Of a DNA stretch of 41,846 nucleotides, positions 1-12,000 are shown in pieces (within the stretch, counting starts at the first letter, position 1; each line of letters opens with the position of its first letter). The stretch lies in IMG/VR virus record IMGVR_UViG_2778261638_000003, positions 1 through 41,846 of that record. The stretch is one strand, 5' to 3'. This stretch comes from a virus. Taxonomy: Duplodnaviria; Heunggongvirae; Uroviricota; Caudoviricetes. The position numbers were made by a program.

Positions 1-3000
1 CTACGATAACCGCGCATTCAACATGGCTACCTGTTCGTCGTTCATGTCATCAATCCACATACCGTAAATTTCATACACCATCTGCGCAGTTTCATGCCCC
101 ATCTGGCTGGCTATAAACGCCGGGTTCGCTCCTGCCGTCAACAGCCAGCAGGCAAAAGTATGCCGCGTATGGTACGGATTACGGCGGCGAATACCAGCAC
201 GTTTTACTGCTGCATTCCATCTCGCACCCAAACTGCTTACCGAGTAATAAGGTTTCTGTTTTCCGTTACACACTCTGGGCATGAAAACAAAATGCAGTTT
301 TTGCTTTTCGGTTCTGCCGTACTCCCGATGGTAAAAAGTGATTTCGCCTTTGCGATGATGCCCGGTCAGTTTGTATTGCTCCTTCAGTGCTTCAAGAGCA
401 GGCTGCAGTAGCGTTACTGTCCGGATCCCGGCATTTGTTTTTGGGGGACCGAACATATCAAGTATCGTCAGGTTTCTTCTGACATTCACTATTCCCTTCT
501 CGAGATCCACATCCTCCCACGCCAGAGCTGCCAGTTCCCCGTGACGAAGCCCGGAGTAAACGGCAAATTTCCACAAGTTTTGGCTCTGTCCTTTTTCACT
601 TTCCATTAATGCATTGAATTCTGTTTTAGATAACGGGTCAGGCTTTATTCTGTTTCGCTGTAATTTTTTTACTCCTTCAAATGGTTTGGTTGATATAAAT
701 CCCGACTGATACGCAAAACGTAACAGCGAACAGAGCAGGGCGATATAGTTATCAACTGTGCGCACGGTTCTTCCTTTTTTGTTGGATCTTGGATTATCCA
801 GGTAAAGCGTTTCTCCATGCAGCAGTTCATTCCGGTAGTTTAAGATATCGCTATAACGAATATATGATATCGGGGTACTTTCACAAATTATTATTCTGAG
901 TGTTTTTAATTGTGATTTCGTTTTCTTCATTGTGTTTGTTGTTAACTCTGTCTCTTTAATTTTTGTCCAGATATCACAAAGCTCCCCGAACGTTTTTATG
1001 ACTCTCGTTGTCACCATTTTTGCCCCAGTGCTGGACTGGGGAAAACGTCTTAAATACTCAAATTCACCGGAGTTTATTTCATGAACTATCAGCGCTCTTA
1101 AATTTCCGGCCTTTTTAATATTACTGTTTGTAATCTCCCAGCCTTTTAATGTTTCCCGACATCGTTTTCCTCGAAACATGAACCAGATGCGAATGTTTCT
1201 ACCTCTAATCTCGACACCTGTTGGTAATTTAGACATATCATGAGTCTTTGATAAACTGATTTATCTTTGGATAGTTGTACCAGATAATCCCTCGTTTGCT
1301 GTCTGGCTTACCTAAAGGAGATACTCGTTTGAAGTGGAAGCCCTCCACCCAACAGTTCTGGCGGTATGCTTCAATTTGTCTGGCCCCCAGACCAGTGCGA
1401 AGCATCAGGCCGTATTCAACCATCCACTCTTCATTAAAGATTACTTGTGCCATCGCATCACCTCTGGCAGGCGCCAATGTTAGACTGAAATTGACGCCTG
1501 ATGTTGATTATTAATAATCAGCTATGAAGTTTTAATTTGAATACAATGCAATTCACGAGGACTGAAGTTTCTCGCAATTAAAATTTATCAGTTTTACTTT
1601 CTGCTCTCTGGAAACGCCTGCTTCTTTTTTCCCTGAGAGCATTTTTTCACATTCTGATTTGGTTAGTTTTGTTTTTGAGTATCTTGTCCAGTTGGTAGGC
1701 GAACCGCCTTCCTTTTCAATAGTGGCAGTAATTTTATACATGAACACCTCCATTATTATTTCCAATGGTTCGTTTATTCCATCTTTCGAGGGCAGCTTTT
1801 TCACTTCCTCCATAACCAGATCGTGATTCGCATCCATTGCATTTCACACGGTAATATCCTGAAATCCCTTTCACCGTTACTGATGGACAACCACAAAAAG
1901 GGCATGGTTTGACTTTTTCATACCGCATTGTCTTTTCTCTCATAAAATAAAGTTTTTGATGGCGGTGAGGCTACACCGCCAAAGTAAGTATCAGGAGCAG
2001 ATATATTCCGGTTTCATATCTGCAAGTGTCATTTTATACGCCTCATATAATTCTCCCAGATGCGGCCGTGCAGCATTCAGCGTATTTTCCAGAGTAGTAA
2101 ATTTTTGTTCTGCTTCTGGATCACCTGATGAAGGCAGGTCATTTATCATCTTCTCAATACGGGCAATAGCATTGAGACGGTGATGACGCTGAACCACTTT
2201 TCCTTTAAGTTCTGTGTAGAGAGCGCCAAGTGTATTTTTATGATCTTCCACTTCCTGGCGAAGCGCTGTTGTTTCTGCGGTGCTCTGTGCCTGCTCAATA
2301 CGTTCACGGAAAGCGTCGATCCAGTTTTCCCCGGCATCTTGCTCAATAATTGTTGTTTCGCGTTCCGCACGGCAGGCGGATGTGTTTTTATGTTCCTGAA
2401 CCGGATTAATGATTTTTTCCTGTGGTTCGTCCAGTTCTTCCTGGGTGTACACTCCAAGAATCACTTCAGGGCAATAAAGGCGTGCCCAGCGTTTCAGTGC
2501 CAGATAGGCAAGCTGTTGGCGAGGATCATCAGCCCATAACGTTGAGTTACGTGTTCTGGCCTGCGCCAGAAGTAACTCCAGTACGCGAGGTTTGCTCTCT
2601 CCGCGTAGCGTTGCCTGGACGCGAACTCCGATCCCGTTTTCATCGGCCAGCTTCCAGCCAGGGACACGATATTCTTTCCCTTTGTCGTTCTTCCTGATAT
2701 CAAATTTCCCGATAATTTTTTCCCACGGTCCGAACCAGTCATATTCAATGCGTCCGGTTAGCGGCCCACGAGTACTGATTACGGCATTAACCAGTTGCGC
2801 TTCATATCCGAGCACACCATTCACGACGAAAGTTTTCTGAGCTACTGCGTAAGGGTTCATTTGCCACTGCATCGCCTGCATGGTGATGGCCATACAGTCT
2901 GATGGATTTCCCCGGAGGTGTTCCGGTACAGTAGCCATGCCGGATGCCATTACCTGAGAAAATGTCTGAATTGCAGCCAGGGACTGAGGGCTGAAAACCG

Positions 3001-9000: not shown

Positions 9001-12000
9001 ACGTGCGACTTCTCGTTGTGTCAGGCGTAATTCTTTTCGTCTTGCCAGAGCTCGCTGGCCTAGTGTTTTTGTATCCATAGTTAGGTAATTCTAATTTTTC
9101 TTGACTTAGGTATCCCGCGCACATTAGTGTTAGGAATATCTAACAAAGGGGGCTTTGATGTTTAAAGTTGATGCAATTATTTTTTTTGGTAGCAAGACAA
9201 AGCTTGCCAGTGCCGCAGGAGTAAGGCTGGCAAGTATTGCTGCATGGGGGGAGCTGGTCCCAGAAGGTCGCGCGATGCGTCTGCAAGAGGCATCTGGCGG
9301 AGAGCTTCAGTACGATCCCAAGGTTTATGACGAATATCGTAAGGCAAAGCGGGCGGGTAAGGGTATTCATGAAAATCAGGCATGAGCACATTGAATCAGT
9401 GTTGTTAGCTCTGGCTGCCGAAAAAGGTCAGGCGTGGGTTGCCAACGCAATTACTGAAGAATATTTGCGCCAGGGGGAGAGTGAATTAGCCCTGGCGCCA
9501 GGCAAGGACTGGAACAATCAGCAAAACATCTATCACCGCTGGTTAAAAGGTGAAACAAAGGCGCAAAGGGAAAAAATCCAGAAGCTGATTCCAGCAATCC
9601 TGGCAATTCTTCCGCGCGAACTGCGACATCGCCTCAGCGTTTTTGACACCCTGGAACGTCGCGCATTACTGGCGGCTCAGGAAGCGCTGAATACGGCAAT
9701 TGATGCGCATGATGATGCAGTCCAGGCCGTTTACCGGAAAGCGCATTTCAGCCGCGGTGGGTCTTCCGACGATTCTGTCATTGTTCATTAAGCAAAAGTT
9801 TTCATGCTGTTTGTGCTTATTCTAAGTCACCGGGCAGCATCATACGGGGCAATTATGGCCGCATTACCATACATGCAACTGTACATAGCTGATTACCTGG
9901 CTGACACCATGCATTTGTCAGCAGAGGAGCACGGTGCGTATTTGTTGCTGATGTTCAATTACTGGCAAACAGGAAAGCCAATACCCAAAAACAGGCTGGC
10001 AAAAATTGCCCGTCTGACTAACGAGCGATGGGCTGATGTTGAACCATCTTTGCGGGAGTTTTTTTGCGATAACGGCGACGAATGGGTGCATCTTCGGATT
10101 GAGCGCGACCTTAAAAATATCGTTACAGCGCCAAGAGGGAAGAAATTACCAGAGGGAGAAAATTTATCTGAATACAGGGGATACGTTTATTTCGTGACCA
10201 GCACGGAAATGGATACTGTGAAGATCGGATATTCAAAAAATCCCTGGGCAAGGCTTGGAGAACTACGACGTAGCTACGGTAGTAATCTTAGCGTAGTAGC
10301 TACGATAAAAACCGTAGAAAAATCGGAATCATCAATTCATGCATTGCTATCTGATTATCGAGTTAATGGTGAATGGTTTGTTAAGAGCGAGTGTATTAAA
10401 TCGTTAATAACACAAATCGTAGAAGGGAAAATAACTACCGTAGAAGCTACGAACAACTACGTTAGCAACTACGAAGTAGTTACTACAGTAGTTACTACGA
10501 CAACTACAAATACAGATACAGATCTAAAAGAATTAAACCCCACACATAACGCGCGCGTGCGCGAGAGAGCTCCGACCAGTGAGTCGAACGGTACGCCATC
10601 GCAGACAACGGAGCCCGAATATCTGGACGGCATGAGCGAACCCATCGGGAAATTTCCGATGACCGATGGCTGGCATCCGTCGCCGGATTTTCGACGACGG
10701 GCTGCTCTGTGGGGAGTGGCTCTGCCTGAGCCGGAATTTACACCAGCTGAATTTGCAGCCTTCCGGGACTACTGGGCAGCGGAGGGGAAAGTGTTCACGC
10801 AGATTCAGTGGGAGCAGAAATTCGCCCGTCACGTAAATCACGTCAGGGCGCAGGTTAAACCAGTCAGCAAGGGGGTAAACCATGCAGCAGCACCAGGTGG
10901 CACCGCATCACGAGCAGTTCAGGAAATTCGGGCAGCACGTGAGCAGTGGGAACGTGAAAACGGATTTATCAGCGACGGAAACGGCCTGGAAGCTGTGGGA
11001 ACTCATGGGGGAGGTTTATTCGAACCGCTGGACCCAGAAGAACGGGGCCGCACCTTCGAAGCTCTGGATTGCACAGATTGGCGCGATGACTGAGCAGCAA
11101 ATCCGGCAGGTCTGCCGCCAGTGCATGGACCGCTGCCGGGCGGGTGAAACATGGCCTCCGGACCTGGCTGAGTTTGTGGCGCTGATTTCGGAAAGCGGAG
11201 CCAATCCATTCGGTCTGACGGTGGATGCCGTGATGGAGGAATACCGCCGCTGGCGCAATGAGTCCTGGCGATACGACGGAAGCGATAAATACCCGTGGTC
11301 TCAGCCTGTGCTGTATCACATTTGCCTCGAGATGCGTTCAAAGGGGATTGAGCGCCAGATGACCGAAGGGGAGTTAAAACGGCTTGCAGAATGGCAACTG
11401 ACGAAATGGGCAAAGCATGTTGGTAATGGCCTGAGCATTCCGCCAGTCCGGCGACAACTGGCGGCACCCAAACGCCCGTCGGGACCAACGCCAATTGAGT
11501 TGCTGAAACAGGAATATGAACGCCGGAAAGCGGCTGGTTTTGTTTGAGTTGAGAAGTAATTTTTACCGGGAGGAAATTTTAATGGAGACCGTTTTTGACG
11601 CACTGAAAGCAATGGGAAAAGCCTCTTCCCAGGAAGTGGCTGCACGTCTGGGAATGACCCGGGATGAGGCGATTAACGAGCTGTGGAAACTGAAGCGTCG
11701 CGGGGAAGCTGACAACAAGGGCCCGATGTGGTGGTTGACTCAAACCGACGAAAACGCATCTGTGGCACAGGCTTCTAAAGTGACAGCGCAAATGCTGATC
11801 GAGGCGATTGAACAGCATGGCCCTAAAGCGGCTGATGAACTTGCACTGATATTCAGAATTACTTCCCGCAGGGTGAACTCATCGCTGGCTATGGCCATCA
11901 GCAAAGGTCGTCTGATTCGCGTAAATCAGAACGGTAAATTTCGTTACTGCCTGCCGGACGGTAATTTACCAGCAGAGCCGAAAGTTGTATCGGTAGCGAA

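Follow-up and report, generated by a model that had tools for sequence, protein, structure and literature searches.

The Rac prophage of Escherichia coli K-12 is a cryptic remnant in which recE is silent until activated. The nuclease domain of K-12 RecE comprises residues 564-866 and can substitute genetically on its own, and the N-terminal part of the protein has been described as being 'of unknown function' (review, PMC11611040). The recET genes of Gifsy-1 and Gifsy-2 were first found genetically, among recB suppressor mutations; they are repressed in lysogens and, once activated, suppress the recombination defects of recB mutants (PMC3121763). Lambda Red (Exo/Beta) is a functional analogue encoded at the corresponding place in the early-left operon; in it, a 5'-3' PD-(D/E)XK exonuclease is combined with an annealase that docks, through its helical C-terminal domain, onto both the nuclease and SSB (cited in PMC13490951). 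RecT C-termini were sorted in 2026 into helical bundles, disordered tails and extended bundles, with contacts to RecE and SSB predicted, and the coupling of RecT C-terminal bundles to RecE is, as a general idea, already published (PMC13490951). The present analysis concerns positions 1-9791 of a 41,846-nucleotide stretch of DNA from a virus of the class Caudoviricetes (IMG/VR record IMGVR_UViG_2778261638_000003, positions 1 to 41,846; the whole stretch is hereafter termed the window), and in particular the recE and recT genes that it carries. This region is very probably the early region (integration, recombination and immunity) of an E. coli Rac-family lambdoid prophage in which recT has been exchanged entirely and recE at its nuclease end.

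Alignment of the whole window to K-12 Rac using blastn revealed a mosaic, with 92-96% nucleotide identity outside three swapped segments (Table 1). A Rac-like gene order and an intact module had been proposed in a preliminary description made from the sequence alone, and both proposals stood: the Rac-family order xisR-rcbA-ralR-recT-recE-racC-ydaE-kilR / sieB / ydaF ... ydaT-ydaU was recovered with all genes found and intact, every open reading frame (ORF) of the early region was open and free of frameshifts, and the proteins encoded by intR, xisR, rcbA, ralR, racC, ydaE, kilR, sieB, ydaF and ydaT were 66-100% identical to their K-12 Rac counterparts (BLASTP). The alignment called for in that description related the ORFs to the Rac genes named, except for the repressor, the Cro-like gene and the recT/nuclease cassette. 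Chromosomal segments 99.7% identical to window positions 1-10500 were found by megablast against complete E. coli genomes in strains 0-4, QML220601 and others. The RefSeq order in the first of these strains (NZ_CP076262) runs ttcA, intR, xisR, DUF1187 protein, ralR, 'RecT family recombinase' and recE, followed by a hypothetical protein, a YdaE-family protein, kilR, sieB, ydaF and a second hypothetical protein, and finally by a helix-turn-helix (HTH) protein, a Cro/CI regulator, ydaT and a DUF1376 protein, a layout which is that of the K-12 Rac prophage. In the same genome ttcA ends 51 bp from intR, so that the closest full-length match occupies the chromosomal site of K-12 Rac. The features shared with K-12 Rac are therefore the gene order, the ttcA site (in the near-identical genome), most of the nucleotide sequence, residues 1-100 and 235-607 of RecE and the accessory genes for RalR/RalA, KilR and SieB, a likeness that lies far beyond chance and points to shared ancestry. 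The differences are the replacement of the RecE nuclease domain and of the whole of RecT (1982-4356), the divergence of RecE residues ~101-235, and the immunity genes described below. Head and tail genes, which have been lost from K-12 Rac, are also kept in the window.

The 1040-residue RecE protein is a hybrid. It is highly similar to K-12 RecE (866 residues) up to residue ~607, this N-terminal part being ~90% identical with net insertions relative to K-12, and thereafter BLASTP similarity is confined to 29% identity over residues 892-1017. Residue ~607 aligns with residue ~595 of the K-12 protein, just upstream of the point at which homology in the nuclease core begins. The protein was nevertheless recognised by the NCBIfam exodeoxyribonuclease VIII equivalog PRK09709 (1332 bits against a cutoff of 1269), and matches were obtained to Pfam Exonuc_VIII (PF06630, E 2e-66, residues 2-182) and DUF3799. 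From residue 611 to residue 1038 it is 51% identical to HK225 RecE, a helical insert in the nuclease domain included. A sequence search of solved structures aligned the RecE structure 3H4R with the nuclease domain in two blocks and placed D912, D925 and K927 on D748, D759 and K761 of K-12 RecE, and none of the three varies among 12 aligned homologues, whose identities reach down to 50%. The C-terminal domain thus has the RecE fold and the catalytic Asp-Asp-Lys of a PD-(D/E)XK nuclease, and the nuclease is likely to be functional. A CxxC-x8-CxxC zinc-knuckle-like motif was also observed in the middle part of RecE, at window positions 4537-4584 (residues ~532-547), and is conserved in K-12 RecE (CNACGQTGGDNCPDCG).

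The two blocks of the nuclease core are separated by the insert (residues ~695-857), which amounts to a net insertion of ~130 residues relative to K-12 RecE; hidden Markov models (HMMs) of both core blocks matched the K-12 protein (K-12 residues 595-669 and 705-852), whereas the HMM of the insert did not. The insert is all-helical and, with predicted local distance difference test (pLDDT) scores of 85-92, forms the most confident part of the AlphaFold2 (AF2) model. It contains an internal repeat, residues 694-720 resembling residues 763-789 (hhalign self-match, probability 95%, E 3e-8), and its sequence, which includes invariant residues, is conserved throughout Enterobacterales and also in a phage of Aeromonas. 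Family and fold searches returned no match that would explain its function. The repeats gave the impression of SAP/HeH DNA-binding motifs; this impression was left unsupported by a Pfam scan of the insert alone, which at E values up to 10 returned noise only.

The 350-residue RecT protein had been termed RecT-like, a designation that holds for the family and fails for the K-12 orthologue. Membership of the RecT family was established by a Pfam RecT match (PF03837, E 4e-43, residues 30-209) and by PHROG 561, which covers the full length of the protein (E 1e-144), whereas BLASTP found no significant similarity to K-12 RecT (269 residues; E 0.44). A scan of NCBIfam gave no match for the protein, and an HMM built from the core of its subfamily failed to match K-12 RecT. 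The protein accordingly belongs to a different RecT subfamily and, at the level of BLASTP, is not an orthologue of K-12 RecT. It is 48% identical over its full length to the RecT protein of HK225, and homologues along its full length number more than 6,000 proteins at E values below 1e-5 across Enterobacterales, many of them named 'enterohemolysin'. The helical C-terminal domain ends in a conserved DMKPEY motif; searched alone against Pfam at E values up to 10, this domain returned noise only. Nothing significant was found when the RecT model was compared with the Protein Data Bank using Foldseek, the best match being the N-terminal domain of Red-beta (E 0.23), and a sequence search of solved structures gave no match.

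As the RecE alignment breaks at residue ~607 and RecT has no BLASTP match in K-12, the two differences form one contiguous cassette, consisting of recT and of the recE nuclease domain from residue ~607, which appears to have been exchanged as a unit relative to K-12. Among 5,426 complete E. coli genomes, this cassette was present in 193 and the K-12-type cassette in 1,750. Both proteins are longer than those of K-12, as the preliminary description had stated, and the insert (~160 residues), the RecT C-terminal domain (~110 residues) and the net insertions in the RecE N-terminal part account for the additional ~174 and ~81 residues. Its characterisation of the RecE ORF as unusually long was misleading, however, as RecE proteins of ~960-1130 residues and RecT proteins of 345-373 residues are normal for this type of phage. 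The same architecture is shared by HK225 (RecE 1129 residues, RecT 371), Gifsy-1 (961 and 369), Rac-SA53 (1048 and 367) and the Aeromonas phage pAEv1818 (1074 and 373), and it is therefore K-12 RecET that represents the shorter type. PHROG families 607 and 561 cover RecE and RecT, respectively, from end to end. In Gifsy-1/2, HK225, mEp237 and Rac-SA53, as here, RecE is long, has a DUF3799 nuclease domain that bears the insert, and is followed by a RecT of ~350-370 residues with a helical C-terminal domain. The cassette of Rac-SA53, for which a literature search gave no descriptive paper, is 87% identical in nucleotides. HK225 differs in that the N-terminal 600 residues of RecE, which are of the Rac type in the window, are just 32-35% identical to those of HK225. 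Nucleotide identity of ~92-95%, against window positions 1504-24262 and with the RecET cassette included, was also observed for PP818812.1 ('Actinobacillus phage vB_Apl-pPE4'); given its closeness to E. coli prophages, the assignment of this record to the host Actinobacillus pleuropneumoniae looks doubtful.

The association between insert-bearing nucleases and RecT proteins of this type was investigated in 80 viral contigs retrieved by the RecT C-terminal domain alone (loci designated L followed by a number below). A separate RecE-like gene was located upstream of recT in 77 of the 80, the three exceptions being a contig end, a fused ORF and a 474-residue protein. This gene ended within ~210 nt of recT in 76 of the 77 contigs and overlapped recT in the ORF call of the remaining one; two of the 77 genes were truncated within or just after the insert. 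In the Rac-SA53-like loci L048-L061, the nuclease is nearly identical to that of the window (96%), while the RecT core is 58-60% and the RecT C-terminal domain 78-81% identical. The pattern differs in L063, L064 and L066, in which the nuclease (87-94%) and the RecT core (94-96%) are conserved and both the insert (63-74%) and the C-terminal domain (68-73%) have diverged. The RecE N-terminus varies independently among the viral loci, from 27% to 100% identity. Such segment-wise identities show that recombination has occurred inside the recE and recT genes. In pAEv1818, the nuclease is 47% and the RecT C-terminal domain 34% identical (E 1e-13), and the RecT core, still a Pfam RecT member, showed no likeness by BLASTP or with the subfamily HMM.

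Adjacency in 76 of 77 loci, taken together with the genetics of Gifsy recET, suggests a specific interaction between RecT and its nuclease partner. The pairing data also fit a role for the RecT C-terminal domain as a partner-docking module that stays with its own type of nuclease, which we infer as a lead and not as a finding. A more specific proposal, made tentatively and as possible rather than probable, is that the RecE insert (residues ~695-857) could serve as a docking platform for RecT residues 238-350, the two forming a portable 'lock and key' that would set partner specificity and be inherited together, uncoupled from both the RecT annealing core and the 600-residue RecE N-terminus. 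This idea is based on the consistent pairing of RecT proteins carrying the C-terminal domain with insert-bearing nucleases, on the Aeromonas phage, which keeps the RecT C-terminal domain and not the RecT core, and on the three loci in which the insert and the C-terminal domain diverged strongly together and both catalytic cores did not. However, linkage of this kind would also be expected of adjacent genes in related phages and of fast-evolving segments, and both the insert and the C-terminal domain evolve fast. Linked in this way, the insert and the RecT C-terminal domain offer a concrete, testable guess as to how this class of RecET obtains its partner specificity.

The conservation of the insert also bears on the possibility that the RecE ORF is a decaying or chimeric pseudogene, in which the ~160 additional residues are junk in a dead enzyme and the region is as cryptic as K-12 Rac. 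The state of K-12 Rac itself would agree with this, as would the few related viral loci that have a truncated RecE (L035, L042) or fused genes (L079). It is nonetheless very unlikely, since the RecE ORF is uninterrupted, more than 60 related viral loci contain full-length ORFs of ~940-1160 residues, and the catalytic Asp-Asp-Lys and many residues of the insert are invariant across homologues that are just 50-69% identical. Moreover, the insert is modelled with the highest confidence and is conserved as far as the Aeromonas phage, and terminase, portal, capsid and tail genes are present in the same window.

It might alternatively be supposed that the region is chiefly a defence/anti-defence island, with the enlarged nuclease of RecE serving as an anti-phage effector and not in recombination, given that SieB, RalR/Lar and KilR are encoded in the region and a BstA-like abortive-infection protein further on (14604-15377). 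This too was considered very unlikely: PADLOC models matched none of the small proteins of the region (the sole match, BstA, lies outside it), the accessory genes are identical in kind to those of K-12 Rac, and recE and recT are placed where lambdoid phages canonically carry exo and bet, their orthologues being genes whose role in recombination has been proven genetically. That the 350-residue protein is an enterohemolysin toxin and not a recombinase is scarcely credible, as the names 'enterohemolysin' and 'RecT family enterohemolysin' borne by close homologues come from an old link between a phage clone and a haemolytic phenotype, whereas the Pfam RecT match is strong, PHROG 561 is a family of RecT-like annealing proteins matched over the full length, and the recT gene lies consistently directly downstream of the exonuclease VIII gene.

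A Rac-family early region with an exchanged recET cassette would be expected to work as follows. The minus-strand genes from kilR to intR appear to be arranged like an early-left operon, which by homology would be silenced in the lysogen by the DicA-like repressor and, upon induction, would express KilR (a division block), RecE and RecT, RalR/Lar, Xis and Int. RecE and RecT would together constitute a two-component single-strand-annealing recombinase, in which the C-terminal PD-(D/E)XK domain of RecE would degrade the 5' strand from the end of double-stranded DNA, and RecT would coat the exposed 3' strand and anneal it to a complementary strand.

Some points count against this account of the region. 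The analysis demonstrates homology, domain boundaries, conserved catalytic residues, fold and distribution; the enzymatic activity of RecE and RecT, in common with all functional claims made here, is predicted by homology. The window starts exactly at the intR stop codon, which leaves attL outside it, and attR is likewise lacking, so that the intactness demonstrated here is that of the early region and not of the whole prophage. The AF2 models are of moderate quality only, with a mean pLDDT of 68 for RecT and of 70 for RecE residues 600-1040, the first ~65 residues of the latter model being unreliable. The exchange could have run in either direction, with either allele being the ancestral one.

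The value of the locus as a discovery is small, since the region is already annotated in RefSeq, its type of RecET is represented in phage family libraries and genetic support exists in Salmonella. It nevertheless constitutes a natural hybrid of a Rac-type N-terminus, a Gifsy/HK225-type nuclease and its own RecT, which marks residue ~607 as a junction tolerated in RecE chimeras. The pair is also a candidate E. coli-native recombineering pair that could be compared with K-12 RecET, including in linear-linear cloning, an application which depends on full-length RecE. The coordinates of all features are collected in Table 1.

Table 1. Features of the early region and segments of the blastn alignment to K-12 Rac (window positions; aa, amino acids; percentages for genes are identities of the encoded proteins)
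Feature	Position (nt)	Strand	Basis or similarity
Segment with intR, xisR, rcbA, ralR	1-1981		96% to K-12 Rac (blastn)
Segment with variant recT and RecE nuclease domain	1982-4356		none to K-12 Rac (blastn)
Segment with RecE aa ~235-607	4357-5472		92% to K-12 Rac (blastn)
Segment with RecE aa ~101-235	5473-5875		none to K-12 Rac (blastn)
Segment with RecE N-terminus, racC, ydaE, kilR, sieB, ydaF	5876-8103		93% to K-12 Rac (blastn)
Segment with immunity genes	8104-9364		almost none to K-12 Rac (blastn)
Segment with ydaT and start of ydaU	9365-10103		92% to K-12 Rac (blastn)
intR, tyrosine integrase, 411 aa	1-1236	-	99% to K-12 IntR; annotated intR in NZ_CP076262
xisR, excisionase, 71 aa	1238-1453	-	100% to K-12 XisR; Pfam DUF1233 putative excisionase, E 6e-21
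rcbA-like DUF1187 protein, 62 aa	1553-1741	-	97% to K-12 RcbA; Pfam DUF1187, E 1e-37
RalA antitoxin small RNA, antisense to rcbA	1557-1735	+	Rfam RF02694, 197 bits against gathering score 170, full-length
ralR (Lar), type I toxin and restriction-alleviation protein, 64 aa	1734-1928	-	89% to K-12 RalR
Replacement cassette, variant recT and nuclease part of recE	1982-4356	-	gap in blastn alignment to K-12 Rac
RecT-family annealase, 350 aa	1991-3043	-	Pfam RecT, PHROG 561
RecT helical C-terminal domain, aa 238-350 (~110 aa)	1994-2332	-	AF2, pLDDT 85-92
RecT linker, disordered and variable, aa ~192-238		-	AF2 model
RecT core, aa ~17-205 (aa ~17-195 in the AF2 model)	2429-2995	-	Pfam RecT, AF2 model
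RecE / exonuclease VIII, hybrid, 1040 aa	3055-6177	-	BLASTP, NCBIfam, Pfam
RecE Gifsy/HK225-type nuclease domain, aa 607-1040	3058-4359	-	HK225 likeness
RecE helical insert in nuclease domain, aa ~695-857	3607-4095	-	HMM, hhalign, AF2
RecE Rac-type N-terminal part, aa 1-606	4360-6177	-	divergent patch at aa ~101-235
racC, 91 aa	6279-6554	-	90% to K-12 RacC
ydaE, small zinc-binding protein, 58 aa	6629-6805	-	66% to K-12 YdaE
kilR, FtsZ/division inhibitor, 73 aa	6799-7020	-	95% to K-12 KilR; PHROG 294 Kil, E 4e-36
sieB, superinfection exclusion, intact, 162 aa	7459-7947	+	98% to K-12 SieB; Pfam PF14163 SieB, E 6e-30
ydaF, DUF1391 protein, 51 aa	7944-8099	-	90% to K-12 YdaF; Pfam DUF1391
Protein of unknown function, 92 aa	8231-8509	-	downstream of repressor, same strand
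DicA-like HTH repressor, 135 aa	8671-9078	-	57% to Qin DicA, same length; Pfam HTH_3
DicC-like Cro, 76 aa	9155-9385	+	75% to Qin DicC, same length; Pfam P22_Cro, E 3e-12
ydaT, CII-like regulator, 140 aa	9369-9791	+	92% to K-12 YdaT; Pfam YdaT_toxin; PHROG 163 CII-like

The accessory genes flanking the cassette were identified as those of K-12 Rac, and the earlier identifications of Lar/RalR, SieB and KilR were upheld by family scans (NCBIfam, Pfam and PHROG). RalR matched both the NCBIfam RalR equivalog (E 5e-44) and the Lar family (E 3e-15), and both the toxin gene and the antisense RalA RNA of the RalR/RalA type I toxin-antitoxin pair are present. The sieB gene, flagged as frameshifted in NZ_CP076262 (strain 0-4; 10459-10948 of the locus taken from that genome), is an intact ORF encoding the full SieB protein in the window.

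In the immunity segment, the naming of the regulators as a repressor and YdaS was not sustained. The repressor and the Cro-like protein gave no BLASTP match to RacR or YdaS, the match of the latter protein to Pfam YdaS_toxin fell below threshold, and both genes are of the DicA/DicC type, where K-12 Rac has RacR/YdaS; genes annotated dicA and dicC are likewise carried by Rac-SA53. This pair marks a heteroimmune relative. The gene for the 92-residue protein stands in place of ydaG of K-12 Rac, at the position held by rexAB in lambda, and its product gave no match in Pfam, PHROGs or PADLOC. Distant homologues of this protein are few (86-99 residues, 42-50% identity), and substitutions fall mostly at the third codon positions of its frame. 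An antisense ORF of 63 residues (8237-8428, plus strand), with a zinc-ribbon CxxC...CxxC and a good ribosome-binding site, was considered as a real gene and rejected, because it is the 92-residue frame that has distant homologues and third-position substitutions, the antisense ORF having near-identical copies only. The immunity segment, including the 92-residue gene, was found at a coverage of at least 80% in just 14 of the 5,426 E. coli genomes. A perfect 14-bp inverted repeat (GCACTTTTTGTTAG / CTAACAAAAAGTGC) with a 6-nt loop is located at 8609-8642, ~30 bp past the stop codon of the repressor gene, and further AACCTAACA-like repeats flank it. The inverted repeat may act as a terminator or as a binding site for a protein. 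A consensus scan for promoters and terminators over 6000-9500 yielded fewer promoter-like sites than shuffled sequence.

Beyond the early region, the window had been described as continuing into Qin-like and lambda-like late regions, a claim which did not hold, as the late region is like neither and just ~0.75 kb matches Qin. The sole sizeable Qin-like segment is 15888-16636 (hok/rem), which is 81% identical to hokD/rem of K-12 Qin, and the genes for head and tail find their matches in Rac-family phages. The window encodes a terminase, a portal, a major head protein, tail proteins and a tape measure. Window positions 24238-24535, 36140-36781 and 37553-38518 correspond, respectively, to ynaK, ydaY and ynaA, which survive as remnants in K-12 Rac, and from ~24.2 to 41.8 kb the window resembles phage records in which Rac early genes are likewise found (94% identity over 77% of the 20.0-41.8 kb query). 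As the late genes match both the K-12 Rac remnants and Rac-family phages, K-12 Rac looks like the deleted remnant of such a phage, and the late genes are Rac's own.

Four further genes or loci were noted outside the early region. The YdaU-like replication protein (9804-11093, plus strand) comprises 429 residues, compared with 285 in K-12, and resembles K-12 YdaU in its first 106 residues only; it consists of DUF1376, an inserted T5orf172/MUG113 (GIY-YIG-like) domain at residues ~125-195 and a DnaT DNA-binding domain. The BstA-like protein, a KilA-N protein of 257 residues encoded on the minus strand, matches the BstA abortive-infection family (PHROG 6287, E 5e-89; PADLOC BstA, E 3e-21), and is likely to be a prophage-encoded anti-phage defence protein. 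An Rfam sok antitoxin RNA (15732-15907, plus strand, 106 bits) marks a hok/sok-type toxin-antitoxin locus. Finally, a NinB/Orf-like recombination mediator (16630-17229, plus strand; PHROG 319, E 4e-69) provides a second recombination function besides RecET.

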